The notes: a model not told the origin generated them from the sequence alone. A stretch of DNA of 64,000 nucleotides from Nitrospirota bacterium (GCA_035498715.1 DATJZV010000158.1:34239-98238); one strand, 5' to 3'; counted from the stretch's first letter, positions 6,089 through 51,710 are shown. Made by a program: numbers and translations.

Positions 6089-6475
6089 ATGAGAGCGTTT
6101 GCCTGCAAAAGCTTGGGAAATAAATGTACTTGGAAACATATTGCTAAAACAGAGGAACTGCTTACCGATATCGTGGCTGTCCACCTGAGAGATGTTCATG
6201 GAGTCAATTCAATCACTCCGGAACTGGTTGGTAAGATTAAAAATGCCTTTAGCAATCCAACTCCTATTGAGGCAAAAGGGGCGGAGAATCTTGTCCTGAA
6301 GGAATTCGCCTGCAAAGACCTTGGTAATAAGTGCGACTGGAAGTATGTTGCGCAGACCGAGGAATTAATTGTTGACGGAGTAGCCGTTCATGCACGCGAG
6401 TTTCATGGGATCAAGGAATTTACACCGGAGATGGCAGTAAAAGTAAAGCAGCTATCCCATGAGTGGAGAGGGTAA
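6089..6475 (+). CDS. tandem DUF1059-like small metal-binding domain protein
   Basis: 128 aa made of two roughly 55 aa repeats at about 50% identity (FACKSLGNKCTWKHIAKTEELL...VAVHLRDVHG and FACKDLGNKCDWKYVAQTEELI...VAVHAREFHG). Each repeat has a C-x5-C pair and an H-x3-H pair. Confidence 0.7.
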   Translation: MRAFACKSLGNKCTWKHIAKTEELLTDIVAVHLRDVHGVNSITPELVGKIKNAFSNPTPIEAKGAENLVLKEFACKDLGNKCDWKYVAQTEELIVDGVAVHAREFHGIKEFTPEMAVKVKQLSHEWRG

Positions 6476-11295: not shown

Positions 11296-11333
11296 GCCGT
11301 CAAACCTAGCACAAACAGATTGAAAAATCAAAC

Positions 11334-11361
11334 TTAAAATGGTTTCCTTAAAATGGTTTCC
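11334..11361. repeat. perfect tandem 14 bp direct repeat (TTAAAATGGTTTCC, two copies) in the argD / aminotransferase divergent promoter region
   Basis: Two abutting identical 14-mers 40-65 bp upstream of the argD start. Candidate operator for an arginine-responsive regulator. Confidence 0.5.
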
Positions 11362-11447
11362 CGTAAAATAAAAGGGTGATTACCCTATGAAATTCTCTTT
11401 TTGATGAATGGGAGATCATATCTTTGCTGTTCGGAGAGTGTTTTTTA

Positions 11448-11476
11448 TTGACAAAATTTGGATACTGTTTTATTAT
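11448..11476 (+). promoter_or_regulatory. near-consensus sigma70 promoter (TTGACA, 17 nt, TATTAT)
   Basis: Perfect -35 hexamer, exact 17 nt spacer and a -10 hexamer with 5/6 match, 65 nt upstream of the aminotransferase start codon. Confidence 0.5.
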
Positions 11477-11540
11477 CAATTTTATTCTTTAAATTTAAGC
11501 GGTTAGATGCTGAAAACTTTGAAAAAAGAAAGGGATAGCA

Positions 11541-12716
11541 ATGCCTGAGCGTTTCGCCAGGATCAAGAGGCTACCACCCTATGTTTTCGCAATCGTCAAC
11601 GCCATGAAGATCGAGGCGCGCAGGCGAGGAGAGGACATCATCGATCTCGGTATGGGCAATCCTGATCAAGGCACGCCTCAGCATATAGTTGACAAATTGA
11701 TCGAGGCAGCCCAGAACCCCAAAAACCACCGCTATTCAGCGTCCAAGGGAATCACGAAGCTTCGCACAGCACTCTGCGATTGGTACAGACGGCGCTATGA
11801 CGTTGACCTCGACCCCGAGACCGAGGCCGTGGTAACAATCGGTTCTAAGGAAGGTCTGTCCCATTTGGCCCTGGCCACGATTGAACCCGGTGACGTTGTA
11901 CTGACCACCACCCCGGCCTATCCAATCCATCCATACAGTGTGATCATCGCGGGCGGCGAAGTGCGGTCCATACCCCTCAGGAAAGACAGCGATTTTTTCG
12001 CCGACATGCAGGAGGCGTTCAAGAACACCTGGCCCCGACCCAAGATGCTGATCATCAATTTCCCGAACAACCCGACCACAGCGGTCGTGGATGTGGCGTT
12101 CTTTCAGAAGATAGCGGATTTTGCCCGTGAGAATGATGTCATGGTAGTTCATGACCTGGCCTATGCGGACCTGAACTTCGACGGCTACCGTGCGCCGAGT
12201 TTCCTGCAGGCCAGGGGCGCGAAAGAAGTGGGTGTCGAGTTTTACAGCCTGACCAAGAGCTACAACATGGCCGGTTGGCGCGTGGGGTTCTGTGCGGGGA
12301 ACAAAGATGCGGTGGGCGCCCTCATTAAGATCAAGAGCTACCTCGACTACGGCATGTTCCAGCCTATACAGATCGCGTCCATCATCGCTCTGAACGGGCC
12401 GCAGGAGTGCGTAAAAGAAATCACCGATACATATCAATCCCGCCGGGACGTGCTCATAGATGGACTGAATAAGGCGGGTTGGAGCATTGAGAGACCTAAG
12501 GCGACCATGTTCGTCTGGGCTGAGATTCCTGAGCCCTTCAAGAGGATCGGATCGCTCGAGTTTGCGAAGCTGCTCATCAAAGAGGCCAAGGTGGCGGTCT
12601 CACCGGGCATCGGCTTCGGTGAATACGGCGACGGATATGTAAGATTCGCCCTGGTGGAGAACGAGCATCGTATCCGCCAGGCCGTAAAGGGCATTAAACA
12701 AGCAATCCAGAAATAG
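11541..12716 (+). CDS. class I PLP aminotransferase (aspartate/alanine aminotransferase type)
   Basis: 391 aa. Fold-type I aminotransferase motifs ([25 protein letters not shown] with the PLP-lysine). Same architecture as Thermus-type AspAT. Confidence 0.85.
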
Positions 12717-12811
12717 GGCTAAGGGTCGAGTAGCAGGAGATCCAGGGAGTAGAACAGAATCCACCTTTGGACCCGGCACGTTGACCCGTGACTGTTAGAG
12801 GGCGAAGAGAC

Positions 12812-14128
12812 ATGGCATCAAGAAAATCGATCACTGTAGGTATCATCGGCTTCGGCACGGTAGGAGCTGGCACGGCCCGCATTCTCATAGAGAATGCTGA
12901 AATAATCCGGAGAAGGCTTGGCTCGGCGGTAACGCTTAAGAAGATAGCCGATCTGGATGTCAAACGTGATCGGGGCATTCCGCTCAAGGGTGTTCAGCTT
13001 ACGACCAATGCGCAGGAAGTCCTGACCGATCCGGAGATCGACATCGTGGTTGAACTCATAGGCGGGTACAAGCCTGCAAAAGAATTCATCCTCGAGGCGA
13101 TCAGGAACAAGAAACACGTGGTGACCGCAAACAAGGCTCTCCTGGCAGTGCACGGGGAGGAGATCTATGCCGCCGCGGAAAAATCAGGAACGTCGGTCGG
13201 ATTCGAGGCATCGGTGGCAGGGGGCATCCCCATTCTTGCGGCCATCAGGAATGGTCTGGCCGCTAATAATATCAAGTCAATAAACGGTATTGTGAATGGC
13301 ACCTGCAACTATATCCTGACGCTCATGACGAACGCTGGCAGGAAGTTTGAGGAGGTTCTGAAAGAGGCGCAGGCAATGGGCTACGCCGAAGCGGACCCTA
13401 CGTTCGATATCGAGGGGATCGACTCTGCACACAAGCTCGCGATCCTGACTATGCTAACATACGGAACACCGGTGAAGTTCGAGGAGATCTACACGGAAGG
13501 GATCTCCAAGATCTTGCCGCTGGACATCGATTTCGCCAAAGATCTCGGCTACAAGATCAAGCTCCTCGCGATAACCAAGATGGTGGACGGCGAGATCGAG
13601 GCGCGGGTGCACCCGACGATGCTTCCCGAGGAGTACCCCATTGCTACAGTGGATGGTGTTTACAATGCGCTTTCAGTTGTCGGTGATGCCGTCGGGTCGA
13701 CGATGTTTTACGGGAGGGGAGCGGGAGATATGCCGACCGGAAGCGCTGTGGTGAGCGATATCATGGACATCGGAAGGGACATTCTGTCCGGGTGCGCTAA
13801 CCGGTCACCAGTGGCAGCGTTCCGGGAGCGTTCAACGCTAAAGATCAGGAAGATGGATGACATCACGTCGTGCTATTATCTCCGGTTCTCGGCGATTGAC
13901 AGACCGGGCGTGATGTCTCGCATCTCCGGGGTGCTCGGCAAGAATAATATCAGCATCTCTTCCGTGATCCAAAAGGGGCGGAAGGCGGCCGAAGCTGTGC
14001 CGGTCGTGATGATGACGCACGAAGCGGTTGAGCGGGATGTTCGCAGTGCCCTCGACGAAATAAATAGGATGGACTGTGTTGCCGGACCGACGATGGTCAT
14101 CAGAGTGGAGGAGGGCAAACAGGGGTAA
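12812..14128 (+). CDS. hom: homoserine dehydrogenase with C-terminal ACT domain
   Basis: NAD(P)-binding GIIGFGTVGAG motif, catalytic domain and C-terminal ACT regulatory domain. Start at MASRKS with an AGAGGGCGAAGAGA RBS. Confidence 0.9.
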   Translation: MASRKSITVGIIGFGTVGAGTARILIENAEIIRRRLGSAVTLKKIADLDVKRDRGIPLKGVQLTTNAQEVLTDPEIDIVVELIGGYKPAKEFILEAIRNKKHVVTANKALLAVHGEEIYAAAEKSGTSVGFEASVAGGIPILAAIRNGLAANNIKSINGIVNGTCNYILTLMTNAGRKFEEVLKEAQAMGYAEADPTFDIEGIDSAHKLAILTMLTYGTPVKFEEIYTEGISKILPLDIDFAKDLGYKIKLLAITKMVDGEIEARVHPTMLPEEYPIATVDGVYNALSVVGDAVGSTMFYGRGAGDMPTGSAVVSDIMDIGRDILSGCANRSPVAAFRERSTLKIRKMDDITSCYYLRFSAIDRPGVMSRISGVLGKNNISISSVIQKGRKAAEAVPVVMMTHEAVERDVRSALDEINRMDCVAGPTMVIRVEEGKQG

Positions 14129-14193
14129 TTTCCCCGGCTTTTTGATTACGGGATGCAGAATGATAAAAGAAAATCAGTAAACCGAAATCCGCA

Positions 14194-14466
14194 ATGGAGG
14201 TAATGATGGCCGACGAAATCAAGGTTGATAAGACACTGGATATAAAAGGTCAAGTCTGCCCCTATACCTTCGTCCGATCGAAGCTGGCAATTGAGAAGAT
14301 GAACCTCGGCGAGGTGCTTGAGATCATCACAGATCACAGACCTGCGTCGGAAAATGTTCCAAAGAGCATGGAGAACGAGGGTCAAAAGGTTTTGAAGATC
14401 GAGCAAACGAGCGAAAAAGAGTGGCATATCTTTGTCAGAAAGGACAGAGAGAAGAAGAAAACGTGA
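14194..14466 (+). CDS. tusA: TusA-like sulfurtransferase (two-layered alpha/beta sandwich, CPxP motif)
   Basis: About 85 aa with the diagnostic CPYTF motif (VCPYTFVRSKLAIEKM) and LEI..D motifs of the TusA/SirA family. Confidence 0.8.
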   Translation: MEVMMADEIKVDKTLDIKGQVCPYTFVRSKLAIEKMNLGEVLEIITDHRPASENVPKSMENEGQKVLKIEQTSEKEWHIFVRKDREKKKT

Positions 14467-14543
14467 AATGTAAGACGTGAGAACCATGGCAAAGAGATTC
14501 TACTTCTCACGCTTAACGTCGAGCACTTTATGGTGGTTTAACA

Positions 14544-15347
14544 ATGGAATTTACAGAAGACCAGATACTCCGCTACAGCAGGCACATCCTGCTCCCTGAG
14601 GTCGGGGGAGACGGTCAGGAAAAGATCCTGAACGCCAAAGTTGTGCTCGTTGGCGCTGGCGGTCTCGGTTCGCCGGTGGGATACTATCTTGCGGCCGCAG
14701 GCGTGGGCACGATCGGCGTGATTGACAATGACCGCGTTGAGATGTCCAATCTCCAGCGCCAGATCGCGCACAACACGAGCCGAATCGGGGTGGACAAAGC
14801 TGATTCGGCAAAGCAGACGTATGAGACCCTGAACCATGATGTGAAGGTGGTGACACACAAGGAGCGTCTCACCTCCAAGAACATCATGCAGATCATTCGC
14901 GATTATGATATCGTTGTGGACGGGAGCGACAACTTTCCCACACGATATCTTGTGAACGACGCTTGCGTCATGCTCAAGAAAACGCTCGTGAGCGCGGCGG
15001 TGTTCCGTTTCGAAGGCCAGGTGATGACCATTTTCCCGGGCGAAGGGCCGTGCTATCGCTGCCTGTTCGAGGTTCCGCCGCCGCCGGGCATGGTGCCGTC
15101 ATGCCAGGAAGCCGGCATACTGGGCGTGGTAACCGGCGTGATCGGTACCATCCAGGCGACCGAGGTAATCAAGGCTATTCTAGGCATCGGGCATCCCCTT
15201 AAAGGGAGGCTTCTTCTGTGGAATGCGCTCGACATGAGCTTCCGTACGGTAAAGGTTCCCCGGAACCGTGAGTGTCCAGTCTGCGGTGAGCATCCAACGA
15301 TAAAAGAGCTTATCGATTACGAGCTGTTTTGCTCAATGAACCATTGA
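14544..15347 (+). CDS. MoeB/ThiF-type E1-like adenylyltransferase for a ubiquitin-like sulfur carrier (no rhodanese domain)
   Basis: 267 aa. Rossmann motif VVLVGAGGLGSP, RQ motif and two C-terminal CxxC pairs (CYRC...CPVCG). Ends without a rhodanese domain. Confidence 0.85.
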   Translation: MEFTEDQILRYSRHILLPEVGGDGQEKILNAKVVLVGAGGLGSPVGYYLAAAGVGTIGVIDNDRVEMSNLQRQIAHNTSRIGVDKADSAKQTYETLNHDVKVVTHKERLTSKNIMQIIRDYDIVVDGSDNFPTRYLVNDACVMLKKTLVSAAVFRFEGQVMTIFPGEGPCYRCLFEVPPPPGMVPSCQEAGILGVVTGVIGTIQATEVIKAILGIGHPLKGRLLLWNALDMSFRTVKVPRNRECPVCGEHPTIKELIDYELFCSMNH

Positions 15348-15387
15348 AGGCACTGTCAAGAGACAAGAGACGAGGGCATCTTTCCAG

Positions 15388-15795
15388 TTGCTGACGATAA
15401 AAAAGACCGATCTCGAGAGTATTTATGAGCATTGCAATAGCGTGTATCCCAATGAAGCATGCGGGATCCTTGCCGGCAGGGATAACAAGGTCCAAAAAGT
15501 TTATTCGCTCGTGAGTGAAATACCGAGTCCGGCATTTTATCAAATTGACTCGAAAGAGCACTTCCGGGTAATTCGGGAGATGCGGGAAGCGGGAATAGAT
15601 TTGGTTAGCATCTATCATTCGCATCCTGGCGGCCCGCCATTCCCGTCCTCAACCGATGTGGATTTGGCGTACTACCCGGAAGCAGTGTATGTGATCGTTT
15701 CGCTCATGGATAGACAGAATCCGGTCGCAAAAGGGTATAACATCATTAAAGGGGAAATTACGGAAGTTCCCTTGAGCATTATTCCGGAGGAATAA
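15388..15795 (+). CDS. JAMM/MPN+ metalloprotease (Mec+/CysLA family) that processes the MoaD/ThiS-like carrier
   Basis: 135 aa. JAMM motif with glutamate (NEACGIL) and HSHP..PSSTD (H-x-H-x7-S-x2-D). Confidence 0.85.
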   Translation: MLTIKKTDLESIYEHCNSVYPNEACGILAGRDNKVQKVYSLVSEIPSPAFYQIDSKEHFRVIREMREAGIDLVSIYHSHPGGPPFPSSTDVDLAYYPEAVYVIVSLMDRQNPVAKGYNIIKGEITEVPLSIIPEE

Positions 15796-15801
15796 TCGCA
15801 G

Positions 15802-17034
15802 ATGACATATGTTAAGGGGTTGCGGTGCGTAGAGTGCGGCAGGGAGTACAAAGTTGACCCCGCTTACGTATGCGAATTCTGTTTCGGGCCGCTCGAAGTC
15901 ACGTATGACTACGAGAGGATCAAGAAGGACATGACGAAGCAGAAGGTCGAGTCAAGGCCGCACCATATGTGGCGTTACCGCGAGCTCCTGCCGATCGACG
16001 GTGACCCGGTCACGGGCTTTGACACCGGCTTTACTCCGCTCATGAAAGCCCAGAACCTGGCCAAGGCATGGGGTGTGAAGGAGATATACTTCAAGGACGA
16101 CTCCGTGAACCATCCGACCCTTTCGTTCAAAGACCGGGTGGTGGCCGTGGCTATCACGAAGGCAAAGGAGTTCGGATTCGATACGGTGGCATGCGCATCG
16201 ACAGGCAACCTTGCCAACTCCGTGGCAGCGCAGGCCGCGCGGGCGGGCATGAAGCGGTTTATATTCACGCCGGCCGACCTTGAGCTTTCTAAGACCATTA
16301 ATTCGCTCGTTTACCAGCCGAATCTGGTGACAGTGGATGGGAATTACGACGAGGTGAACCGCCTTTGCTCAGAGGTCGCGAACAAGTATCCATGGGCCTT
16401 TGTGAACATCAATATCCGGCCGTTCTATGGCGAGGGCTCGAAATCCTTGGGATTCGAGATCGCCGAGCAGCTCGGGTGGAAGACGCCGCACAACATTGTG
16501 GTGCCCAACGCCAGCGGTTCGCTCATGACCAAGATTTGGAAGGCTTTTAAGGAGCTAGAGAAGATCGGTCTTGTCCCACCGGTGAAAACCAGGGTGTTCG
16601 CGGCACAGGCCACAGGTTGCAATCCGATCGCTGCGGCGATCAAGGATGGGAGCGACATCGTTAAGCCGGTTAAGCCGAAGACAATAGCCAAGTCCCTTGC
16701 GATCGGGAACCCAGCTGACGGATACTATGCGGTAAAGGTCACGAGGGATACGGGCGGGTTCGGAGCGGATTCGTCGGACCAGGAGATCGTGGATGCGATC
16801 AAGCTTCTTGCCGAGACCGAAGGCGTGTTTGCCGAGACGGCAGGCGGTGTGACCGTATCAGCGGCCAAAAAACTCATCGATGCAGGTAAGATACCGAAGG
16901 ACGAGACACTCGTCATCTGCATCACCGGCAACGGACTTAAGACTACCGAGGCAGTCATTGACCATCTCAAGCGGCCGACTCCGATCAAGCCGAATATCGA
17001 CTCTTTCGAGAAACTGCTGAAGAAAATCAGTTAA
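15802..17034 (+). CDS. threonine-synthase-family PLP enzyme with N-terminal zinc ribbon (ThrC-like; candidate O-phosphohomoserine sulfhydrylase / homocysteine synthase, or a bona fide ThrC)
   Basis: 410 aa. N-terminal CxxC-x17-CxxC ribbon (CVECG...CEFCFGPLE). PLP-lysine motif SFKDRV. Fold-type II (PALP) architecture similar to ThrC. Confidence 0.85.
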   Translation: MTYVKGLRCVECGREYKVDPAYVCEFCFGPLEVTYDYERIKKDMTKQKVESRPHHMWRYRELLPIDGDPVTGFDTGFTPLMKAQNLAKAWGVKEIYFKDDSVNHPTLSFKDRVVAVAITKAKEFGFDTVACASTGNLANSVAAQAARAGMKRFIFTPADLELSKTINSLVYQPNLVTVDGNYDEVNRLCSEVANKYPWAFVNINIRPFYGEGSKSLGFEIAEQLGWKTPHNIVVPNASGSLMTKIWKAFKELEKIGLVPPVKTRVFAAQATGCNPIAAAIKDGSDIVKPVKPKTIAKSLAIGNPADGYYAVKVTRDTGGFGADSSDQEIVDAIKLLAETEGVFAETAGGVTVSAAKKLIDAGKIPKDETLVICITGNGLKTTEAVIDHLKRPTPIKPNIDSFEKLLKKIS

Positions 17035-17147
17035 TTTGGTAACAGAGCCACAGGGGACACGATGAAATACAGAAAATGCTGTTCTTCTTTGCCTCAACGT
17101 GTCTGTGGCAGTCATTTCAGTTGAATCGCATTTTCAGGAGGAAAGAC

Positions 17148-17426
17148 ATGGCGATTAAAGTGAGGATCCCGACTCCCTTGCAAAAGCTCACGAACGGCAG
17201 GGCCGATGTGGAGTGCGACGCGAGGAACATCGTGGAGCTTGTCGACGCCTTGGAGAAGGACTTTCCGGGCATGAAGGAGCGGCTCTCAGAGGGCGGTAAG
17301 ATCCGGCGGTTTATTAATATTTACGTGAACGAAGAGGACATTCGCTTTGTGAACAAGGAAGAGACCACTCTGAAGGACGGCGATAATGTCTCGATCGTGC
17401 CGGCAATTGCCGGTGGGACGCGGTAA
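17148..17426 (+). CDS. MoaD/ThiS-family ubiquitin-like sulfur carrier protein with C-terminal GG-TR extension
   Basis: 92 aa from the ATG at 17148 with an AGGAGG RBS. The beta-grasp-like sequence ends ...SIVPAIAGGTR, so the di-glycine is followed by two extra residues that would need JAMM cleavage. Confidence 0.75.
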   Translation: MAIKVRIPTPLQKLTNGRADVECDARNIVELVDALEKDFPGMKERLSEGGKIRRFINIYVNEEDIRFVNKEETTLKDGDNVSIVPAIAGGTR

Positions 17427-17534
17427 AGACCTTTACCAAAGAGAGAACTTGTAACGCAGAGTAGACCATTCGAAATTCAAGGTTATGATCTCTGTGCCCC
17501 TGCAACCTCTGCAGCAATAATACAAGGAGGCCAC

Positions 17535-17777
17535 ATGGCAACCAAGAGGGTTAAGCTTACGTTTCCGCAGGAACTGATCAAGGAACCGGTGATTTTCACC
17601 ATGGCAAGGAAATTCGATGTGATGCCGAATATCCGCCGTGCCAAGGTTACCGAAAGCGTGGGTGAGGTAGTGCTTGAACTTGAAGGGGCGGAGAAAAAAC
17701 TCGAGGAAGGCATCAAGTATCTCAAAGAGCGCGGCGTAAAGGTAGAGGCCGTTGAAGGCGATGTCGTCAGTTCATAA
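17535..17777 (+). CDS. stand-alone NIL-domain protein (MetN C-terminal-like domain)
   Basis: 80 aa matching the NIL-domain pattern (DVMPNIRRAKV...GEVVLELEG...GVKVEAV). Gene context is sulfur amino-acid metabolism. Confidence 0.6.
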   Translation: MATKRVKLTFPQELIKEPVIFTMARKFDVMPNIRRAKVTESVGEVVLELEGAEKKLEEGIKYLKERGVKVEAVEGDVVSS

Positions 17778-17919
17778 ATACAGAGAACGCGATTACTAAG
17801 ATTATGACGACTCAGGTGGACGCGGTCGCCTAGGCATCCAGATTCTCAAAGGGTTCAAGGACAATGGTTGCGAGTCGATGAAACTAAATGCCGTGTCCTC
17901 TGACCCTTTATTTATATTT

Positions 17920-19149
17920 ATGAAATATATAATATTACTCGGTGATGGAATGGCCGACAGGCCGCATGCAGAGCTCGGGGGCAAGACCTGCCTGCAGGCG
18001 GCGAAAACTCCAAACCTTGACCGGCTTGCTACCCTCGGAACGGTGGGGATGGTGCATACAATTCCTGAGGGGTTTCCGCCTGGCAGTGACGTAGCCAACC
18101 TTACGGTGATGGGGTATGACCCGAGGAAATACTATACGGGCCGTTCCCCGCTCGAGGCTGCGAGCATCGGCGTTAAACTGGAGCCGGATGACGTTGCCTT
18201 TCGCTGCAATCTGGTGACGCTTCGTATCATCGGTGGAAAATCCTCAGCATCGGGCGCTGTGCGGCGTGCGATCATGGAAGATTTCAGCGCGGGCCATATC
18301 CCCACGCAGGAGGCCCGTCTGCTCATCGAGGAGATTAACAGTAAGCTCGGTAGCGACCGTATCCGTTTCTACCCCGGCGTGAGCTACCGCCACCTTATGG
18401 TTTGGAAAGGCGGCAAGGACAAGATTGATTGCACGCCGCCGCACGATATCCAGGACAAGGATATTCAGGACTACCTCCCGCGCGGAGAAGGAGATGAAGT
18501 TCTAAATGCCCTTATGGAATCGTCAACAGACCTGCTCCTGCACCATCCTGTTAATAAAGCCAGGGTCGAGAATGGCAAGCGCCCGGCGAACAGTATCTGG
18601 CTATGGGGGCAGGGGAAGAGGCCGAGCATGCCTACCTTCAGAGAAAAATACGGCCTCGAAGGGGCGATGATCTCCGCTGTGGACCTAACTAAAGGCATCG
18701 GCATCTATGCGGGGTTCGAGGTGATCAACGTACCGGGAGCCACAGGCTGGATCGATACCAACTACGTTGGCAAGGCAGAGCATGCGCTCTGGGCGCTCAA
18801 GACAAAGGACGTTGTCTATGTTCATGTGGAAGCGCCGGATGAAGCTGGCCATACCGGCGATCTTAAAAACAAGCTCAAGGCCATCGAAGACTTTGATGAA
18901 TACGTTGTAGGCAACATCATTCACGGGATGAAACAGTTCGATGAATATCGTATCCTGGCGCTCCCGGACCATCCGACGCCGCTCGAGATCAGGACGCACA
19001 CGAACGAACCCGTACCCTTTGTCATTTACGACAACAGGTCGGAACGCAAAGGCGGGCCTGTGGCCTACGATGAGCGAATCGCGGAGCGTAAAGATGCTTT
19101 GGTGTTCAAGGAAGGGCATGCGCTGATGGATTATTTCCTGAAGAAATAG
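17920..19149 (+). CDS. cofactor-independent phosphoglycerate mutase, archaeal-type (ApgM family); in this context a predicted functional analog of homoserine kinase
   Basis: About 409 aa. Metalloenzyme-superfamily motifs (LLGDGMADRP, HVEAPDEAGH). It sits between the sulfur-carrier module and lysC. The start is uncertain (ATG at 17920 or 17878). Confidence 0.8.
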   Translation: MKYIILLGDGMADRPHAELGGKTCLQAAKTPNLDRLATLGTVGMVHTIPEGFPPGSDVANLTVMGYDPRKYYTGRSPLEAASIGVKLEPDDVAFRCNLVTLRIIGGKSSASGAVRRAIMEDFSAGHIPTQEARLLIEEINSKLGSDRIRFYPGVSYRHLMVWKGGKDKIDCTPPHDIQDKDIQDYLPRGEGDEVLNALMESSTDLLLHHPVNKARVENGKRPANSIWLWGQGKRPSMPTFREKYGLEGAMISAVDLTKGIGIYAGFEVINVPGATGWIDTNYVGKAEHALWALKTKDVVYVHVEAPDEAGHTGDLKNKLKAIEDFDEYVVGNIIHGMKQFDEYRILALPDHPTPLEIRTHTNEPVPFVIYDNRSERKGGPVAYDERIAERKDALVFKEGHALMDYFLKK

Positions 19150-19296
19150 CGTGAAATTCTTGCACACCAATGGCATGAAGGGACGTATGACACGAACTAA
19201 AAAGAAGGACAAAGCCCACTCGTGTCATTCGGAATGGTCGAGTAACTCGTCTGAATCAGCTTTTCTGTTTTCAAGAACTGTAATGGAGGGAAGAGG

Positions 19297-20514
19297 GTGC
19301 TCATAGTACAGAAATACGGCGGTACCTCCGTCGGGAACCCTGAACGGATCAAGAATGTGGCGCAGCGCGTCTGCCGCACAAAAGAGGAAGGCCACGATGT
19401 CGTAGTGGTCGTCTCGGCCATGAGCGGCGAGACGGACAAACTCATCAACCTTGCTTCGATGGTGACCGAGAACCCGGATCCGCGAGAGATGGACATGCTC
19501 GTGTCAACAGGCGAGCGAGTGACGATTGCGCTCCTTGCCATGGCGATCCATTCGCTTGGGCACAAGGCGCAGTCGTTCACCGGGCGGCAGGCGGGGATCA
19601 TTTCGGACAGCGTCCATACGAAGGCGCGGATCGAGAAGATCACGGGCGATCGGCTCAGGCAGGCGATCAAGGAAGGCAAGATCGCGGTGGTTGCGGGCTT
19701 CCAGGGCATCAATGACCAGTCCGACGTAACGACGCTCGGCCGCGGCGGTTCTGATCTCACGGCCGTGGCTGTTGCTGCGGCGCTCAAGGCTGATTTTTGC
19801 GATATCTACACGGATGTGGATGGTGTGTATACTACGGACCCGAACATGGTGCCGCAAGCCAGAAAACTTGACAAGATATCCTATGATGAAATGCTCGAGA
19901 TGGCGAGCCTTGGGGCCAAGGTGCTTCAGACCCGCTCTGTCGAGTTCGCAAAAAAATACAATGTTCCGGTGAGAGTGCTCTCGAGCTTCAATGATAACCC
20001 CGGGACCCTCGTGACCAGGGAGGATTCTGATATGGAGAAAGTGGTGGTGTCCGGCGTGGCATACGATAAGAACCAGGTAAAGGTGACGGTCACGGGCGTA
20101 CCGGACAAACCGGGTGTGGCGGGCAGGATATTCAATGAGATCGCCGACAACAATATCATTGTTGACATGATCATCCAGAATATCGGCGAAGGCGGACTTA
20201 CAGACATGTCCTTTACCGTGCCCAAGACCGACTCACGGAAGATCATGGAGGTCATGAAGAAGGTCGTGGCCGAGATTGACGCCAAGGGCGTAAATCTCAA
20301 AGAAGATATCGCCAAAGTGTCGATCATCGGGGTGGGCATGCGCTCGCACTCTGGCGTTGCCGCTAAGATGTTCTCTTCTCTGGCAAAAGAAGGGATCAAT
20401 ATCATGATGATCAGCACGTCAGAGATCAAGATCTCCTGTGTGATTGATGCCAAGTACACGGAGCTCGCCGTCAGAGTGCTCCACGAGACATTTGAGATGG
20501 ACAAGGCAGCGTAG
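19297..20514 (+). CDS. lysC: aspartate kinase with tandem C-terminal ACT domains
   Basis: GTG start with a GGAGGGAAGAGG RBS. Motif KYGGTSV and the amino-acid kinase fold. Two ACT domains at the C-terminus. Confidence 0.9.
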
Positions 20515-20577
20515 GAAGGGCAGCGATCAAAGGGCAGAGCACTGTTCTCTGTGTACTCTGTACCATGCGACATAAAA

Positions 20578-22170
20578 ATGAAGACTACTGTTCATTTATA
20601 CGACACCACGCTCCGCGACGGCGCACAGGCTGAGGACGTGAACTTCTCGGTAGAGGATATGGTGCGCGTGGCCAAAAAGCTCGACCAGTTCGGGGTGCGC
20701 TATATCGAAGGCGGCTGGCCCGGCTCCAACCCCCGTGACGTTGAGTTCTTCAAAGAAATGCGTCGCGTCAAGCTGAGAAAAGCCAGGCTTGTTGCCTTCG
20801 GCGCCACGCGGCGGGCAAATCTTAAGGCTTCGGAAGACCCGAGTCTCAAGGCACTTGTTGACTCGGGAGCGTCTACGGCGACCATCTATGGAAAAAGCTG
20901 GGACCTCCATGTCCTCAAGGCTCTCAAAACCACCCTTGAGGAAAACCTTCGGATTATCAGCGATTCCGTGGCGTTCCTCAAAAAACATATGGATGACGTG
21001 TTCTACGACGCGGAGCACTTCTTCGATGGATACAAGGCTAATGCCGAATATGCCATTCAGACGCTGCTCGCTGCCGAGTCCGCGGGGGCTGACTGCCTGG
21101 TACTGTGCGATACGAACGGCGGTACCCTGCCGAATGACCTGGAACGAATCGTCACAAACGTCAAGCGACGGATAAAAACGCCCTTTGGAATTCATGCACA
21201 TAACGACTCCGATCTTGCCGTGGCAAATTCTCTAGCCGCGATCAGAATGGGAGCACTGCAGGTGCATGGGACCATCAACGGATACGGCGAACGGTGCGGA
21301 AATGCAAATCTCTGCTCCATTATCCCAGCGCTCAAGTTAAAGATGGGAATCGACTGCATCTCCGACGCGAACCTCTCGAAACTGAGAGAAGTATCCCGGT
21401 ATGTGGATGAACTCGCGAATCTTCCGCACCGCAAGCGGCAGCCCTATATCGGAGACAGCGCCTTCGCGCACAAGGCCGGCGTGCACGTCGATGCGGTGAC
21501 GAAGAACCCCCTCACGTACGAGCATATTATACCGGAACTGGTCGGCAACAAACGGCGCATCCTTGTCTCGGATCTTGCTGGGAAAAGTAATATTCTTCAG
21601 AAGGCAGGCGAACTTAATATCCCGCTCTCCAAGAATAGCCCAGAACTTATCACGATCCTCAAGAAAGTCAAGCAGCTGGAAAACGAAGGGTATGAGTTCG
21701 AGGGTGCCGAGGGCTCGCTTGAACTGCTCATGCTGCGCGCTGGGCATAATTATGAGTCGGTCTTCAATATGTTCGATCGCATTGATTATCGTATCTTGAC
21801 CGAAAAGCGGAAGGTTGACCCTCATCCGGTGAGCGAGGCTACGGTCACGGTAGAGGTCGGAGGGAACATCGAGCATACTGCCGCTTGGGGAAATGGTCCC
21901 ATCAATGCTTTGGACAAGGCGCTCCGCAAGGTGCTGCCGAAATATTTCCCCGGCAGGGGGCTGGAGAACGTGCGGTTGATAGACTACAAGGTGCGGGTGC
22001 TGACCGCGGCCGAAGGCACGGCTGCGCGAGTGCGGGTGCTGATTGAGTCAGGAGACGGCACGAATAAATGGGGTACGGTCGGAGTGTCCGAAAACGTGAT
22101 TGAAGCGAGCTGGCAGGCTCTCGTAGACAGCATCGAATACAAGCTTCTGCGGACGGCGAAGAAGAAATAG
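20578..22170 (+). CDS. cimA: (R)-citramalate synthase / 2-isopropylmalate synthase family, LeuA type 2 (CimA-like)
   Basis: About 530 aa. N-terminal DRE-TIM motif (LYDTTLRDGAQAED) and C-terminal LeuA dimerisation/regulatory domain. Length and N-terminus match type-2 LeuA/CimA. Confidence 0.8.
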   Translation: MKTTVHLYDTTLRDGAQAEDVNFSVEDMVRVAKKLDQFGVRYIEGGWPGSNPRDVEFFKEMRRVKLRKARLVAFGATRRANLKASEDPSLKALVDSGASTATIYGKSWDLHVLKALKTTLEENLRIISDSVAFLKKHMDDVFYDAEHFFDGYKANAEYAIQTLLAAESAGADCLVLCDTNGGTLPNDLERIVTNVKRRIKTPFGIHAHNDSDLAVANSLAAIRMGALQVHGTINGYGERCGNANLCSIIPALKLKMGIDCISDANLSKLREVSRYVDELANLPHRKRQPYIGDSAFAHKAGVHVDAVTKNPLTYEHIIPELVGNKRRILVSDLAGKSNILQKAGELNIPLSKNSPELITILKKVKQLENEGYEFEGAEGSLELLMLRAGHNYESVFNMFDRIDYRILTEKRKVDPHPVSEATVTVEVGGNIEHTAAWGNGPINALDKALRKVLPKYFPGRGLENVRLIDYKVRVLTAAEGTAARVRVLIESGDGTNKWGTVGVSENVIEASWQALVDSIEYKLLRTAKKK

Positions 22171-22263
22171 AGGACAGATCGAATCACCAAGTCACGGTGA
22201 CACCGTGGATACTGAGAAAAGCCTTTGGCTTGTGTCCCATGGTGGTGGGATCGAGGGTTAAAT

Positions 22264-22692
22264 ATGATCGAAGAAGAGGGCATTGTAGCAGAGACGGAAG
22301 GGGGTGTCGCCAGGGTAGCGCTTTTGAAAAAGAGCGCCTGCGAGCAGTGTGCCGCTGCAGGGGTATGCCATCCTGGTGACCAGTCATTCATGGAGGCTGC
22401 CAATCCTCTTGGTGCGGTCAAAGGACAGAAGGTGAAAGTGGTTGTAGCTCCACAGCTCTATCTGAAAGCATCGATCATTCTGTATGGCATTCCCATGGCG
22501 GCGTTTATCGGCGGTGCCATTCTTGCCAAGAACTTGGCGGTGCTTTATGGAGCAGAAGCGAAATCAGACCTCTGGGCCTTTATCGCGGGCGCCGGGTGTC
22601 TCGTGATCTCTTTTGTCTTTATCTGGATGTACAATAAAAAGGTAGAAAAAACTCAAAAGTACAAGCCCGTCATCGTCGAGATCCTTTCCTGA
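22264..22692 (+). CDS. RseC/MucC-like (SoxR-reducing system) membrane protein
   Basis: N-terminal soluble part with the cysteine cluster CEQCAAAGVC, followed by two transmembrane helices. Architecture of the RseC family. Confidence 0.65.
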   Translation: MIEEEGIVAETEGGVARVALLKKSACEQCAAAGVCHPGDQSFMEAANPLGAVKGQKVKVVVAPQLYLKASIILYGIPMAAFIGGAILAKNLAVLYGAEAKSDLWAFIAGAGCLVISFVFIWMYNKKVEKTQKYKPVIVEILS

Positions 22693-22726
22693 TGAATGAC
22701 GGAATTTCTTGTGATGGGGCTCCGTT

Positions 22727-22993
22727 ATGAGATTGATAAAAAATCCTGATGAAGCAAAAAGGCTCGCGCGAACCATTCTCTCGGACATTCTTCTGTACAA
22801 CCAGGCGAAGGTAAAGGAGGGAATCGAGCAGGACAGCCTCTTCGATATTTTGACGGAAGAACTCGCAGAAGGGAAGAAGTATTACGAAAGCATGGTGGAC
22901 GCGGATGTCCGCCAGTCGTCCAACTTCTTTAGTGAAGCCGTGGTCGACGTATTGCTCAAGCAGGCCGGGAAAATAAAGTCCGAGATCTGGTAG
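22727..22993 (+). CDS. hypothetical small helical protein (88 aa)
   Basis: ORF with good coding character (charged/helical). No recognisable motif. Confidence 0.4.
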   Translation: MRLIKNPDEAKRLARTILSDILLYNQAKVKEGIEQDSLFDILTEELAEGKKYYESMVDADVRQSSNFFSEAVVDVLLKQAGKIKSEIW

Positions 22994-23033
22994 TTCATAA
23001 GATAAACAAATTTATCCTCAAAAGGAGCGTCTT

Positions 23034-25151
23034 ATGAAAAATGCTGATGTCAGGGAAATCCGCAACATTGCTATCCTGTCACACGGTGCCGCGGGCAAGA
23101 CATCGCTCGCCGACGCCATGCTTTTCGTTGGAGGCGCGGTAGACGTCCTGGGAAGCGTGGACGACAATACATCGGTCTTCATGCACGAGGCCGAGGAGAT
23201 CGCCCGAAAGATCTCGATCACCGCGGCGCTCGGATTCGTGGACTGGAAGGGTGTGCGGATCAACATCATCGACACCCCCGGTTACATCAACTTCCTTGAA
23301 GAAACGAAGGGAACCCTTCGAGCTGTTGACGGCGCCATCGTCATCGTATCCGCCCTATCCGGTGTCAAGGCCGAGACCGAAAAGATCTACAAGTTCGCCT
23401 GCGACTACGAGATACCGCGTATCGCCTTCGTGAGCAAGCTTGACAAGGAGCGTGCCGATTTTTTTCGTGCCGTGGGCGACATGGAAAAGTACTTCTGCAA
23501 AGGTGCTCTTATCCTTCAGCTTCCTATCGGGCTTGAAGAAAGCTTTTCGGGTGTTATCGATCTCATCAAGATGAAAGCCCTCTATTTCGCCAAGGACAAT
23601 AGCGGCAAGGTTGAGGAAAAAGAGATCCCCGACAACATGAAGCAGGATGCCGCCAGTTACCGTAAGAAGCTTGTCGAACAGATTGCGGAGACCGAGGACA
23701 GTCTGCTGGAAAGGTATCTGGATAAAGGCGATCTCTCACAGGAAGATCTCATAGCGGGACTCAAGCATGGAACGCTCGGCGGCGGACTCTTGCCGGTTCT
23801 GTGCGGCTCACCGGTCAAAAATATGGGGATCCAGCAACTCATGGATGCCGTGATCATGTGCCTCCCATCACCGGTCGAGCGGGCAGGTATCGTGGCGATC
23901 AAGGGGAAAGATCCGAAGACCGACAAAGAGATCGTTCGGAAGCCGGCTCCCGAGGAACCGCTTGCCGCGCTCGTATTCAAGACCGTCATCGACCCCTTTG
24001 CCGGTAAACTCTCCTTGGTGCGGGTTTTCTCCGGAACGCTGAAGTCCGATTCTGCCGTCTATAACTCGACCAAGGAAATAAAGGAAAAAATCGGCTCCTT
24101 GTTCTACATCGAAGGCAAGAAGCAGGTCACAACGCAGGCACTTTCCGCAGGCCAGGTCGGCGCTGTGGCCAAGCTCAAGGAAACCCTCACCGGAGATACG
24201 CTGTGTTCAGAGACGCAGGCGATCGTTCTTGATTTTGCAAAGTTCATCGACCCCGTGCTGTCATTTGCCATAGAACCGAAGTCACGGGGTGATGAGGACA
24301 AGGTGAGCATCGGCATCCACAAACTGCTCGACGAAGACCCGACGCTTCGCTTCGCCTTTGATGATCAGACCAAGGAAATGATCTTGTCGGGCATGGGGCA
24401 GGTGCATATCGAGGTAACGCTCGAGAAGCTGAAGCGGAAATTCGGCGTCGACGTGAAGATGAAGACGCCGAAGGTCCCGTATAAAGAAACAATCAGAGCC
24501 AAGGCAAATGCCCAGGGCAAGTATAAGAAGCAGAGCGGAGGCCATGGGCAGTACGGGGATGCATGGATCGAGCTCGATCCCCTACCGCGCGGCAGCGGGT
24601 TCGAATTCGTGGACAAGATCGTTGGCGGCGTGATTCCGCGGCAGTACATCCCCGCTGTTGAAAAAGGGGTAATTGAGGCCATGCATGAAGGATCTCTTGC
24701 CGGATATCCCATGGTGGATCTCCGTGTCACACTCTATGATGGGTCCTATCACACCGTTGACTCCTCGGAAATGGCATTCAAGGTCGCTGCGTCCATGGGA
24801 TTCAAGAAGGCCGTTGAAGCTGCGAAGCCGGTGCTGCTCGAACCGATCATGAGCGTCGAAGTGGTTTCGCCGGACGATACGCTCGGGGCAGTGATAGGCG
24901 ACCTGAACTCGCGCCGCGGCAAGGTGCAGGGAGTGGTTCCCCAGGCGAATGGCCAGACGATCAAGGCCCTCGTCCCCATGTCCGAGATGCTCTCCTACGC
25001 GCCGACGCTCAACTCGCTCACGAGCGGTAGGGGCATGTACACCATGGAGTTCAACGGTTATGAGGACGTTCCGAGCCACCTGGCGCAAAAGATCATCCAG
25101 GAGCGCGCCGCACAACACGGGCAAGGCAACCAGAACCAGAAAGAAAAATAA
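23034..25151 (+). CDS. fusA: elongation factor G paralog (EF-G2-like translational GTPase)
   Basis: 705 aa. G1 (AILSHGAAGKTS), G3 (DTPGYINF) and G4 (SKLD) motifs, then EF-G domains II-V. Confidence 0.9.
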   Translation: MKNADVREIRNIAILSHGAAGKTSLADAMLFVGGAVDVLGSVDDNTSVFMHEAEEIARKISITAALGFVDWKGVRINIIDTPGYINFLEETKGTLRAVDGAIVIVSALSGVKAETEKIYKFACDYEIPRIAFVSKLDKERADFFRAVGDMEKYFCKGALILQLPIGLEESFSGVIDLIKMKALYFAKDNSGKVEEKEIPDNMKQDAASYRKKLVEQIAETEDSLLERYLDKGDLSQEDLIAGLKHGTLGGGLLPVLCGSPVKNMGIQQLMDAVIMCLPSPVERAGIVAIKGKDPKTDKEIVRKPAPEEPLAALVFKTVIDPFAGKLSLVRVFSGTLKSDSAVYNSTKEIKEKIGSLFYIEGKKQVTTQALSAGQVGAVAKLKETLTGDTLCSETQAIVLDFAKFIDPVLSFAIEPKSRGDEDKVSIGIHKLLDEDPTLRFAFDDQTKEMILSGMGQVHIEVTLEKLKRKFGVDVKMKTPKVPYKETIRAKANAQGKYKKQSGGHGQYGDAWIELDPLPRGSGFEFVDKIVGGVIPRQYIPAVEKGVIEAMHEGSLAGYPMVDLRVTLYDGSYHTVDSSEMAFKVAASMGFKKAVEAAKPVLLEPIMSVEVVSPDDTLGAVIGDLNSRRGKVQGVVPQANGQTIKALVPMSEMLSYAPTLNSLTSGRGMYTMEFNGYEDVPSHLAQKIIQERAAQHGQGNQNQKEK

Positions 25152-34388: not shown

Positions 34389-34532
34389 GGTGATTACGGA
34401 TTTCTGAGTGCGGTATCCGGGGATCCGTGAAACGATGATTGAGAAGAGCGTGGAACCATCAGTTTCAGCGCCGTGTAATCTCTGTTGGTCTGCGAAAACT
34501 GCGTTCCCTGCAGTCTCAAGGAATTATCAAGA

Positions 34533-35429
34533 ATGGCAAAGCGGAGTGCAAAAGCGGAAAAAATTAACATCGGCGTTATCGGCGGCAGCGGCTTATACGA
34601 AATGGAAGGGCTGACCCAAGTGATCACCATGAAGGTCACGACGCCCTTCGGCAAACCCTCGGACGACTACATCATCGGCACGCTGCATGGCAAGCGCGTG
34701 GCGTTCCTGCCCCGGCATGGCCGCGGCCATCGTATTCTACCAACGGACATCAACTACCAGGCGAACATCTACGGCATGAAGAAGCTCGGCGTGGAGCGGA
34801 TCATCTCGGTGAGCGCAGTCGGCAGCATGAAGGAAGAGATTAAGCCCGGTGATATCGTGATCCCTGGCCAGTTCTATGATCACACCAGACAACGGCGGAG
34901 CACCTTCTTTGGTAACGGCATCGTAGCGCACGTGGGAATGGCCGATCCGGTGTGCATCTACCTCTCCGAGATTCTTGTGCAGTCAGGTATTGCCGTAGGG
35001 GCCACGGTGCACCGGGGCGGTACGTACCTGTGCATGGAGGGACCGCAGTTTTCGACACGCGCCGAGTCGCTAACCTATCGGAAGTGGGACGTCGACGTGA
35101 TCGGCATGACAAATGCCACCGAGGCCAAGCTCGCTCGCGAGGCCGAGATATGCTACAGCACCATTGCTCTGGCGACGGACTATGACTGCTGGCACCACAG
35201 CGAAGAGGCCGTGACCGTGGAAGCGGTGCTGGCGGTCATGAAGAAGAACATCGAAACATCCAAAGATATGATCCGTGAAGCTGTCCGGGTCCTGCCGGAG
35301 ACGAGATCGTGCGGATGCAGTGAGTCGCTCAGGAACACGATCATGACGCCCGAGAATCTGATCCCATTCAAGACGAAAAAGGATCTGATTCCCATTATCG
35401 GGAAGTACATGAAAGGCCGGAAGTCGTGA
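34533..35429 (+). CDS. mtnP: S-methyl-5-prime-thioadenosine phosphorylase (PNP/MTAP family)
   Basis: Motifs IGVIGGSG, PRHGRGH, VIGMT and TEAKLARE typical of MTAP/MtnP. Confidence 0.85.
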   Translation: MAKRSAKAEKINIGVIGGSGLYEMEGLTQVITMKVTTPFGKPSDDYIIGTLHGKRVAFLPRHGRGHRILPTDINYQANIYGMKKLGVERIISVSAVGSMKEEIKPGDIVIPGQFYDHTRQRRSTFFGNGIVAHVGMADPVCIYLSEILVQSGIAVGATVHRGGTYLCMEGPQFSTRAESLTYRKWDVDVIGMTNATEAKLAREAEICYSTIALATDYDCWHHSEEAVTVEAVLAVMKKNIETSKDMIREAVRVLPETRSCGCSESLRNTIMTPENLIPFKTKKDLIPIIGKYMKGRKS

Positions 35430-35527
35430 GGCGGCATCGTGAGTAAAAAAAACGATACAATAAAATAAAGCGTTCATCTCTTTTTCATTTTGCTTTTGAA
35501 TTATAAATTACAGGGAGGTTTTATTTA

Positions 35528-36436
35528 GTGAGTTTGCTTGTTGTCGGTACGGTCGCGCTTGATTCGGTCAGGACGCCTTTTGGAAATGTTGAGAATGCCC
35601 TCGGCGGTTCAGCAACCTATTTTTCCACCTCTGCCAGTTACTTCGCCGATGTCCGGCTTGTAGCTGTTATAGGTGAGGACTTCCCCAAAGAGCACATACA
35701 ATTTCTCAAGAGCAAAAACATCGACACGCGAGGCATAGAGGTCCAAAGGGGTGAAACCTTCCGATGGAAAGGCGAGTACGGGTATGACTTGAATGAGGCG
35801 CACACGCTGGCCACGCACCTGAATGTTCTTGCGACCTTCAAGCCGAATATCGTCAACGACTATAAGAACTCTGATGTCGTGTTCCTCGCGAATGTGGACC
35901 CTGATATCCAGCTCGAAGTGTTAAGGCAGGTCAAGAGGCCAAAACTCGTTGCTTGTGATACGATGAATTACTGGATATCGAGCAAACCCGAAGCGCTCAA
36001 ACGCATACTCAAGGAAGTGGACCTGCTCACTATTAACGAAGCAGAAATCAGGCAGCTTGCAGGAGAGGCGAGTCTGGTTAAAGCAGCGAAGAGCGTACAG
36101 GCCATGGGACCGAAGACGGTCGTGGTCAAACAGGGAAGCTATGGAGCGCTTATGTTCAATGGCCACAGCGTGTTCAACGCCCCTGCCTATCCGCTCGAAT
36201 CGGTGTTCGATCCTACGGGTGCTGGTGATACGTTCGCAGGCGGGTTCATGGGGTATCTGGCCAGCACCATGAACTTTACCGAAGAGAGCATGAGGAAGGC
36301 CGTTATCTTCGGCAGCGTCATGGCGTCCCTCAACGTAGAGGCATTCAGCCTTGATCGGCTCCGAAGCCTGGATTATAAAGAAATTGTGGGCAGGTACCGG
36401 GAGTTCAAGAGCATGACGCATTTTGAAGATATATAG
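35528..36436 (+). CDS. PfkB-family carbohydrate/nucleoside kinase (ribokinase-like)
   Basis: GTG start. N-terminal GG motif (ALGGSATY) and C-terminal DPTGAGDTFAGGF anion-hole motif of ribokinase-like kinases. Confidence 0.8.
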   Translation: MSLLVVGTVALDSVRTPFGNVENALGGSATYFSTSASYFADVRLVAVIGEDFPKEHIQFLKSKNIDTRGIEVQRGETFRWKGEYGYDLNEAHTLATHLNVLATFKPNIVNDYKNSDVVFLANVDPDIQLEVLRQVKRPKLVACDTMNYWISSKPEALKRILKEVDLLTINEAEIRQLAGEASLVKAAKSVQAMGPKTVVVKQGSYGALMFNGHSVFNAPAYPLESVFDPTGAGDTFAGGFMGYLASTMNFTEESMRKAVIFGSVMASLNVEAFSLDRLRSLDYKEIVGRYREFKSMTHFEDI

Positions 36437-47094: not shown

Positions 47095-47099
47095 GGTGA

Positions 47100-51235: not shown

Positions 51236-51344
51236 GGCGCTCCTCAATTCAAAATGCGTGAATCGAAAAATACGAAACCGCGGTGTGCTTAGGGCGTAAA
51301 GATCAAATCCTTCGTCGCTTTTTGCGGCAACAATTGCTTTCCCC

Positions 51345-51710
51345 CTAGCTCCTGGTAACAAAAAATACTCCAATGATAATAATCACGATGCCGGTGACGC
51401 GGGTCATCGAGAGATTCTCCTGGAACAGGTAATACCCGGCCACGGCGTTGACGATGTACCCAACGCTGAGCAAGGGATAGGCAAAGCTCACCTCCACGCG
51501 CGAGAGGACGAGGAGCCACACAGCGACACTTACGATGTAGAGGAAGAGTCCCCCGAGAACGAAGATATTCCCGGCCACTTGCAACGCAATGGGAAGGAAA
51601 TTGCTCCAGGCGAACTCAAAATAACCGATGCGCCGCATCCCTTCTTTTAAGCAGAGCTGGGCCGCGGCATTGAGCAGTACTCCTAGCAGAATGATCGGAA
51701 GGTATTTCAC
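51345..51710 (-). CDS. arnE: ArnE/ArnF-type small EamA/SMR-like membrane protein (L-Ara4N-undecaprenyl phosphate flippase subunit)
   Basis: 121 aa with four transmembrane helices and an EamA-like half-domain. Located between arnB and arnT. Confidence 0.7.
   Translation of the reverse strand: MKYLPIILLGVLLNAAAQLCLKEGMRRIGYFEFAWSNFLPIALQVAGNIFVLGGLFLYIVSVAVWLLVLSRVEVSFAYPLLSVGYIVNAVAGYYLFQENLSMTRVTGIVIIIIGVFFVTRS

Follow-up and report, generated by a model that had tools for sequence, protein, structure and literature searches.

Proteins of the TIGR02535 family, which resemble cofactor-independent phosphoglycerate mutases of the ApgM type, were put forward by TIGRFAMs curators as a replacement for the homoserine kinase ThrB (PMC7311316). 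The name ThrB2 was given after thrB and thrB2 proved complementary in their occurrence across gut-microbe genomes (PMC9026213), and a 2026 GapMind preprint renamed the family HomK, for homoserine phosphotransferase, with a phosphate donor that is probably not ATP (10.1101/2024.10.14.618325). BT2402 mutants of Bacteroides thetaiotaomicron are threonine auxotrophs. BT2402 and the divergent DET_RS08350 of Dehalococcoides mccartyi both rescue an E. coli thrB::kan strain, and the same preprint proposes a specificity rule, according to which HomK proteins are marked by a Glu, E299 in BT2402, whose counterpart in mutases is nearly always a Lys (10.1101/2024.10.14.618325). Here, we analysed a 64-kb stretch of DNA from a Nitrospirota bacterium (64,000 nucleotides, hereafter the window; all positions are counted from its first letter), in which an ApgM-like gene (17920-19149) stands within an aspartate-family gene cluster (12812-20514) together with a sulfur-carrier module.

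This module has a described counterpart of its own. In Streptomyces albulus, MetM turns O-phosphohomoserine into homocysteine with the thiocarboxylate of MetO, helped by the JAMM peptidase Mec and by MoeZ, and an S-adenosylmethionine (SAM) riboswitch lies upstream of metM (Hasebe et al. 2024, as cited in 10.1101/2024.10.14.618325 and PMC12172450). Our reading of the window, to which we assign a probability of about 0.78, is that the cluster is a conserved aspartate-family operon of Thermodesulfovibrionia in which HomK would feed a MetM/MetO-like homocysteine branch as well as the threonine branch.

Gene calls were made from an open reading frame (ORF) listing and from Pfam and NCBIfam scans of the window. 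All nine genes of 12812-20514 lie on the plus strand, in the order hom, TusA, ThiF-like E1, JAMM peptidase, zinc-ribbon ThrC paralog, MoaD-like carrier, NIL protein, ApgM-like gene and lysC. An earlier note on this DNA had described the order as hom, sulfur-carrier module, ApgM-like gene and lysC, and had pointed to the lack of a GHMP-type homoserine kinase; the first statement agrees with our gene calls and the second holds for the whole window. The Pfam and NCBIfam scans found no GHMP kinase in 12812-20514, and the Pfam scan of 36 further ORFs of the window found no GHMP kinase, second PALP enzyme or other mutase. Of the remaining ORFs, the ten largest were assigned by visual inspection alone, a gap that is covered by six-frame tblastn over the whole window: E. 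coli ThrB had no match there (best E = 0.27), a canonical ThrC query matched only at 15967-17028, inside the ThrC-like gene, and a PRK04135-type ApgM query matched only at 17923-19026, inside the ApgM-like gene. No asd gene was found in the cluster.

The ApgM-like gene starts at the ATG at 17920 and not at the one further upstream, at 17878, and its 409-residue product, identical to protein P0001, scores 565.9 bits with TIGR02535 ('proposed homoserine kinase'; cutoff 446.3). The two motifs quoted in the earlier note, LLGDGMADRP and HVEAPDEAGH, are found at residues 6-15 and 302-311, and the key residues are D9, S56, E304, D307, H311, D350, H351 and H360. The catalytic Ser56 and the metal ligands D9, D307, H311, D350, H351 and H360 align with those of solved archaeal mutases and are retained in 133-144 of 150 family representatives (the best among 1.84 billion cluster representatives searched, with 40-59% identity to the window protein). 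At position 304, 139 of these 150 have Glu and 2 have Lys. We also aligned four HomK-type proteins of the lineage with three PRK04135-type ApgM paralogs from related loci. The sole column that switches from acidic to basic was Glu304 (HVE-APD) versus Lys (HVK-KVD), and the Thermoplasma acidophilum mutase 3kd8 has a Lys opposite Glu304 as well (NIK-ATD). Moreover, the RAGR motif of the mutases reads SAGH in the window protein, and residue 123 is never Arg across the HomK family representatives. The lysine and the RAGR arginines by which an ApgM mutase is recognised are therefore absent, with Glu304 and SAGH in their place. By these measures the protein belongs to the known HomK/ThrB2/TIGR02535 family and is a putative homoserine phosphotransferase.

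The suggestion of the earlier note that an ApgM paralog substitutes for homoserine kinase thus matches a family whose members complement E. coli thrB::kan (10.1101/2024.10.14.618325). The idea is not new, since the HomK family is already described. 'Kinase' is probably the wrong word for the enzyme, the donor being thought not to be ATP.

BT2402 residue numbers were placed through protein P0458, not through the sequence of BT2402 itself. P0458 carries D9, S56, E299, D346 and H347 at the published numbers, and its E299 aligns with Glu304. An alternative mapping, in which published D274 and H278 would equal D307 and H311 and E299 would fall near residue 332, was dropped: the region near residue 332 has many insertions and deletions, no Glu and no Glu/Lys contrast, whereas Glu304 shows the contrast and P0458 reproduces the numbering. 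We noted that D274, H278 and H325, given as metal ligands of BT2402 (10.1101/2024.10.14.618325, Appendix 3), miss the conserved ligand columns, which would fall near D302, H306 and H356 in BT2402 numbering; the listed D9, S56, E299, D346 and H347 fit. A slip in the numbering of the preprint may explain the mismatch.

The family also includes a long form. Eight representatives of 974-1123 residues (P0365, P0366, P0368, P0370, P0380, P0381, P0410 and P0421) begin with a HomK-like domain, which a charged linker connects to a single apparent transmembrane helix, and close with a C-terminal region of ~550 residues that is rich in beta structure; these C-terminal regions are homologous to each other and have no Pfam match. 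P0417 joins the HomK-like domain to a signal peptidase S26. For an enzyme of amino-acid biosynthesis, anchoring in the membrane is unexpected.

In three related loci, a second ApgM paralog of the PRK04135 type lies on the opposite strand, ~4 kb upstream of the cluster (L021:5920-7128, L042:4977-6185 and L054:5366-6670, all minus strand). It scores 596 bits with NF003160, 193 with TIGR02535 and 202 with NF003242, a pattern that marks it as a separate mutase candidate in these relatives, and it is likely the true phosphoglycerate mutase of L021, L042 and L054. It has a Lys at the specificity position and a Glu that replaces the His311 ligand; its neighbours are TatD/radical-SAM, HemW and MazG genes. 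Given that NF003242 yields 590 bits for the HomK type against 202 for the PRK04135 type, it is in effect a HomK-clade model under a mutase name, and this equivalog model appears to spread that name onto HomK proteins, the source record of the window protein included.

The ThrC-family enzyme of the cluster (15802-17034; PF00291), which would depend on pyridoxal phosphate (PLP), has an N-terminal Cys4 zinc ribbon and keeps the PLP lysine (K110, in SFKDR); its gene starts 6 bp after the stop of the JAMM peptidase gene. The MoaD/ThiS-like sulfur carrier that follows (17148-17426; PF02597, 59.6 bits; TIGR01687, 45.9 bits) ends in PAIAGG-TR. Across the related loci, its Gly-Gly is followed by 0-12 variable residues, which, with the intact motif of the JAMM peptidase, fits trimming by that enzyme. 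A tblastn search of plasmid records led to Nonomuraea gerenzanensis NZ_LT559118 (locus L085), which at 11.85 Mb is evidently a chromosome. Here, a SAM riboswitch (RF00162, 68.7 bits; gathering score 44.4) lies directly upstream of a gene for a zinc-ribbon ThrC-like protein that is 52% identical to the window ThrC paralog, and the next gene encodes a MoaD-like protein of 91 residues with a Gly-Gly end, 45% identical to the window carrier. Judged by this comparison, the window ThrC paralog and carrier are orthologous to a metM-metO-type pair under SAM-riboswitch control, and the paralog is most likely a homocysteine synthase that would use the carrier thiocarboxylate and O-phosphohomoserine.

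Four further proteins accompany this pair. The ThiF/MoeB/UbaA-like E1 adenylyltransferase (14544-15347; PF00899, 282.6 bits) scores 406 bits with NF006444 (MoeB) and 337.9 with NF047750 (SAMP-activating E1), both below cutoff, and is presumed to activate the C-terminus of the carrier. The JAMM/Prok-JAB metallopeptidase (15388-15795; PF14464, 88.4 bits) has an intact HxHx7Sx2D motif (HSHPGGPPFPSSTD in the translation), scores 75.6 bits with NF041370 (desampylase), again below cutoff, and presumably removes the residues after the carrier Gly-Gly, as Mec does. A rhodanese domain is characteristic of MoeZ; where the E1 has none, a TusA-like sulfurtransferase is present (14194-14466; PF01206, 77 bits; Cys-Pro motif in the translation), presumed to be the persulfide donor of the carrier system. 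The last is a stand-alone NIL-domain protein of 80 residues (17535-17777; PF09383, 68.2 bits), and we infer that both TusA and NIL have roles in the pathway.

To assess the conservation of this arrangement, species-representative genomes were scanned for the ThrC paralog, which gave 80 loci, all from metagenome-assembled genomes of Nitrospirota/Thermodesulfovibrionia. The window proteins were mapped onto these loci and onto three more found via HomK relatives. In 78 of 81 loci the ThrC paralog is directly followed by the MoaD-like gene, and in 53 of the 57 loci with enough flank homK is found no more than 4 kb downstream of the paralog, so that the arrangement is no chance juxtaposition. Nearly all related loci also have the NIL gene, placed after the carrier gene and before thrC/homK, and lysC and cimA usually come after homK; in the window, hom is 3.8 kb upstream of homK on the same strand.

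Moreover, a second ThrC, of 350-370 residues and without a zinc ribbon, stands between the NIL gene and homK in 43 of the 67 loci in which both genes are covered. It is 32-38% identical to the zinc-ribbon paralog and scores 510, 474, 441 and 431 bits against the solved threonine synthases of Aquifex, Thermus, Mycobacterium and Bacillus, whereas the scores of the window ThrC paralog against these enzymes stay at 188-197 bits. By these scores the second ThrC is the canonical threonine synthase, and a thrC immediately 5' of homK is the classic HomK context. The presence of two ThrC-family genes side by side indicates distinct, not redundant, functions, and with canonical thrC beside homK in so many relatives, one enzyme plausibly feeds both branches. 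Together with the metM-metO-type orthology, this supports the earlier note's proposal of a single enzyme serving threonine and homocysteine synthesis.

The clade of the window (clade A; 11 loci with a ThrC paralog at least 77% identical) departs from this pattern, as none of the 11 operons, nor any part of the 64-kb window, contains canonical thrC. The homolog search traced no canonical thrC to this clade among the cluster representatives that it covers, which hide the members behind them; the ThrC paralog of locus L003, for example, sits inside the P0173 cluster. In the window's clade, canonical thrC is presumably encoded at another place in the genome. Two close relatives, L001 and L002 (HomK 88% identical), keep hom, TusA, ThiF, JAB, MoaD, NIL, HomK and lysC, and have a 272-bp non-coding gap in place of the ThrC paralog (L001:8883-9155, L002:8884-9156). 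Since hom and homK are kept there, ThrC-family genes should lie elsewhere in that clade. We also observed that the MoaD-like protein of L001 and L002 ends exactly at Gly-Gly, and that the JAMM peptidase gene is still kept.

In the pathway that we propose, the monofunctional aspartate kinase LysC (19297-20514; two ACT domains; NF005155, 653.1 bits) and the homoserine dehydrogenase Hom (12812-14128; C-terminal ACT domain; NF004976, 554.7 bits; PF00742, PF03447 and PF01842; a GTG upstream at 12788 is also possible as start) would lead to homoserine, the substrate of HomK. HomK, a metalloenzyme of the alkaline-phosphatase superfamily, would pass a phosphoryl group via phospho-Ser56 onto the hydroxyl of L-homoserine to form O-phosphohomoserine, a step that would involve no GHMP-type ATP kinase and whose phosphate donor is thought not to be ATP. 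The JAMM peptidase would trim the MoaD-like carrier to Gly-Gly, and the ThiF-like E1 would adenylate it, after which sulfuration, probably through TusA, would give a C-terminal thiocarboxylate. The MetM-like ThrC paralog would then exchange the phosphate of O-phosphohomoserine for the carrier-borne sulfur to yield homocysteine, and in most relatives canonical threonine synthase would take the same O-phosphohomoserine to threonine. For this scheme, the present analysis provides the assignment to families by sequence, the identity of the specificity residue, the order of the genes with its conservation, and orthology to a metM-metO-type pair under SAM-riboswitch control; HomK activity (through E. 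coli thrB complementation) and the chemistry of MetM/MetO come from the literature. From these we infer the same activities for the proteins of the window, and a thrC elsewhere in this genome.

The protein at 17920-19149 could instead be a glycolytic or gluconeogenic cofactor-independent phosphoglycerate mutase that stands in an amino-acid operon by chance. Its top NCBIfam match is NF003242 ('cofactor-independent phosphoglycerate mutase'; 589.9 bits), it scores 553.8 bits with TIGR00306 (apgM), both above cutoff, its homology to solved archaeal mutases reaches E = 2e-59 with all metal ligands retained, and the 64-kb window holds no other mutase. We nevertheless consider this highly improbable, because Glu304 and SAGH replace the mutase Lys and RAGR, because relatives of the same class have a separate PRK04135-type ApgM that scores so low on NF003242, because the place near hom, thrC and lysC is kept in 53 of 57 loci, and because family members complement thrB. 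A HomK-type phosphotransferase might also act on another hydroxy-amino acid, such as L-threonine, giving O-phosphothreonine for cobalamin, or serine. Glu-bearing homologs beside cobD may indeed form threonine phosphate (10.1101/2024.10.14.618325), and the Glu would select any substrate with an amino group. Those cobD-linked outliers, however, fall below the TIGR02535 cutoff (10.1101/2024.10.14.618325), unlike the window protein; the Pfam and NCBIfam scans detected no cobD or cobalamin gene in the cluster, and the neighbours are hom, lysC, a MetM-like enzyme that would use O-phosphohomoserine and, in relatives, canonical thrC. We therefore give very little credence to another substrate.

A different question concerns the ThrC paralog, which in the window's clade might be the sole enzyme of its family and make threonine, with or without homocysteine; the cluster would then be mainly a threonine operon, and the carrier genes would serve some other purpose. 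With 275.8 bits the paralog exceeds the TIGR00260 thrC cutoff of 167.1, records call it a threonine synthase, the clade A operons and the window have no canonical thrC and none was traced to the clade, and a cyanobacterial MetM homolog has threonine-related activities in vitro (PMC12172450). This is still unlikely in view of the 43 of 67 relatives in which both paralogs stand side by side, of the JAMM peptidase and carrier genes that flank the gene, and of the actinomycete ortholog behind a SAM riboswitch, which is a signal for methionine and not for threonine; L001 and L002, moreover, retain hom and homK with no paralog in the operon, so that a thrC must exist elsewhere in that clade. More tentatively, and without favouring it on balance, we entertain a wider view of the cluster as a self-contained operon route from aspartate to homocysteine in Thermodesulfovibrionia, built from a non-ATP HomK and a variant MetM/MetO pair. 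TusA and NIL might here be extra sulfur-delivery or regulatory parts, possibly standing in for the rhodanese-fused MoeZ and the SAM riboswitch; thrC might have left the operon in the window's clade, and the zinc-ribbon ThrC paralog might also cover threonine synthesis.

Several points weigh against our preferred reading, in which HomK serves both branches. Besides the scores with NF003242 and TIGR00306, the source record of P0001 names it 'cofactor-independent phosphoglycerate mutase [Nitrospirota bacterium]', and homoserine phosphotransferase activity, putative for the window protein, is known for BT2402 and DET_RS08350 only. An earlier attempt at thrB complementation by BT2402 failed (PMC7311316), and the later rescue was weak, with an increase of 0.14 in optical density at 600 nm (OD600) in 47 h (10.1101/2024.10.14.618325). 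The negative results for thrB cover the 64-kb window and 83 related loci of up to 21 kb. As for the sulfur-carrier branch, the likeness to MetM runs through the Nonomuraea pair, the S. albulus proteins having been compared by description only; the E1, of 267 residues and with no rhodanese domain, reaches 344.9 bits on the MoeZ model against a cutoff of 647; and L001 and L002 keep the carrier module without the ThrC paralog, so that the module is not strictly tied to it. No family reached its gathering score in an Rfam scan of the window, hence no SAM riboswitch was found there. A cyanobacterial MetM homolog also lacks this riboswitch (PMC12172450), which indicates that it is no strict requirement.

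Replacement of homoserine kinase by an ApgM paralog and a sulfur-carrier route from O-phosphohomoserine are both already known; what is new is a HomK member from Nitrospirota and an operon that joins HomK with a sulfur-carrier homocysteine module, with minor variations. Judging by family and context, the public label 'cofactor-independent phosphoglycerate mutase' almost certainly hides the homoserine-phosphorylating enzyme of this lineage, and the label 'threonine synthase' of its neighbour most likely hides a homocysteine synthase. Metabolic reconstructions of uncultured Nitrospirota would be misled by both labels, towards false auxotrophy for threonine and methionine or towards a spurious step of glycolysis. 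The operon links HomK genetically to the synthesis of methionine as well as threonine, which makes the identity of the phosphate donor of HomK matter more, and it offers a compact gene set for probing that donor. Beyond the relabelling and the donor question, the result is confirmatory rather than surprising.

On either side of the nine genes, two plus-strand neighbours recur in relatives. A class I/II aminotransferase, alanine transaminase-like (11541-12716; NF006033, 663.7 bits; cutoff 647), has its ortholog before hom in many related loci, and citramalate synthase CimA (20551-22170; TIGR00977, 771.4 bits), which belongs to a threonine-independent route to isoleucine, is encoded downstream of lysC in the window and in related loci. 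A promoter and terminator scan of 11300-23100 gave sites no more numerous than in shuffled sequence, and no operon boundaries are claimed from it.

Other features of the window were recorded in passing. Methionine salvage genes include a methylthioadenosine (MTA) phosphorylase (TIGR01694, 322 bits) followed by a PfkB-family kinase (34485-36436, plus strand) and, ~9 kb away, MtnA, methylthioribose-1-phosphate isomerase, beside a glycine-cleavage T protein (44930-45991, minus strand). The minus-strand region 46165-53386 holds a complete arn-like set, for the modification of lipid A with aminoarabinose; the set comprises a polysaccharide deacetylase, a split ArnA with separate epimerase/dehydratase and formyltransferase genes, a GT2 ArnC-like protein and a DegT/ArnB-like aminotransferase (these five by Pfam), together with a small SMR-like protein and a large membrane protein that is ArnT-like by eye only. 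An ORF of 88 residues with no Pfam or NCBIfam match (22727-22993, plus strand) lies between an RseC/MucC-like gene and a paralog of elongation factor G (EF-G), and relatives L001-L003 have an 88-residue gene call at the corresponding place. Finally, a 128-residue protein (6089-6475, plus strand) is built of two DUF1059 repeats in tandem, both with a conserved motif that contains Cys, and adjoins cytochrome c biogenesis genes that are ResB/CcsA-like by eye only.

Compared with the described members of HomK, BT2402 and DET_RS08350, the window protein has the same fold family, a score above the TIGR02535 cutoff, the catalytic Ser, the metal ligands and the specificity Glu, and its gene lies beside hom and, in relatives of the window, beside thrC. 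It differs in coming from an uncultured Nitrospirota, at about 40-59% identity to family representatives, in the sulfur-carrier homocysteine module carried by the same operon, and in that thrC is not adjacent in the window's clade. With archaeal-type ApgM (PDB 3kd8/3idd and 2zkt), it shares full-length homology (E = 2e-59 to 4e-56) and the metal-binding and phospho-serine residues; the Lys to Glu change at 304, the change from RAGR to SAGH and the genomic context set it apart. The PRK04135-type paralog is more distant, with 26-27% identity to the co-resident HomK-type protein by blastp and 29-30% in the multiple alignment.

The sulfur-carrier module is closest to MetM/MetO of S. albulus: in both, a ThrC-homologous PLP enzyme is directly followed by a MoaD/ThiS-like carrier with Gly-Gly, accompanied by an E1-type activating enzyme and a Mec-like JAMM peptidase. 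The window differs in having no SAM riboswitch and an E1 without a rhodanese domain, in the conserved extra TusA-like and stand-alone NIL proteins, and in the union of all components with hom, homK and lysC in one operon, where O-phosphohomoserine would come from HomK and not from ThrB. More broadly, the CysO/CysM/Mec system of Mycobacterium tuberculosis and the HcyS/HcyF/HcyD/MetY system of Wolinella succinogenes are built likewise, with an E1, a JAMM peptidase and a ubiquitin-like carrier whose thiocarboxylate is accepted by a PLP enzyme; CysM, however, uses O-phosphoserine and MetY uses O-acetylhomoserine, and neither is a ThrC-family enzyme acting on O-phosphohomoserine.

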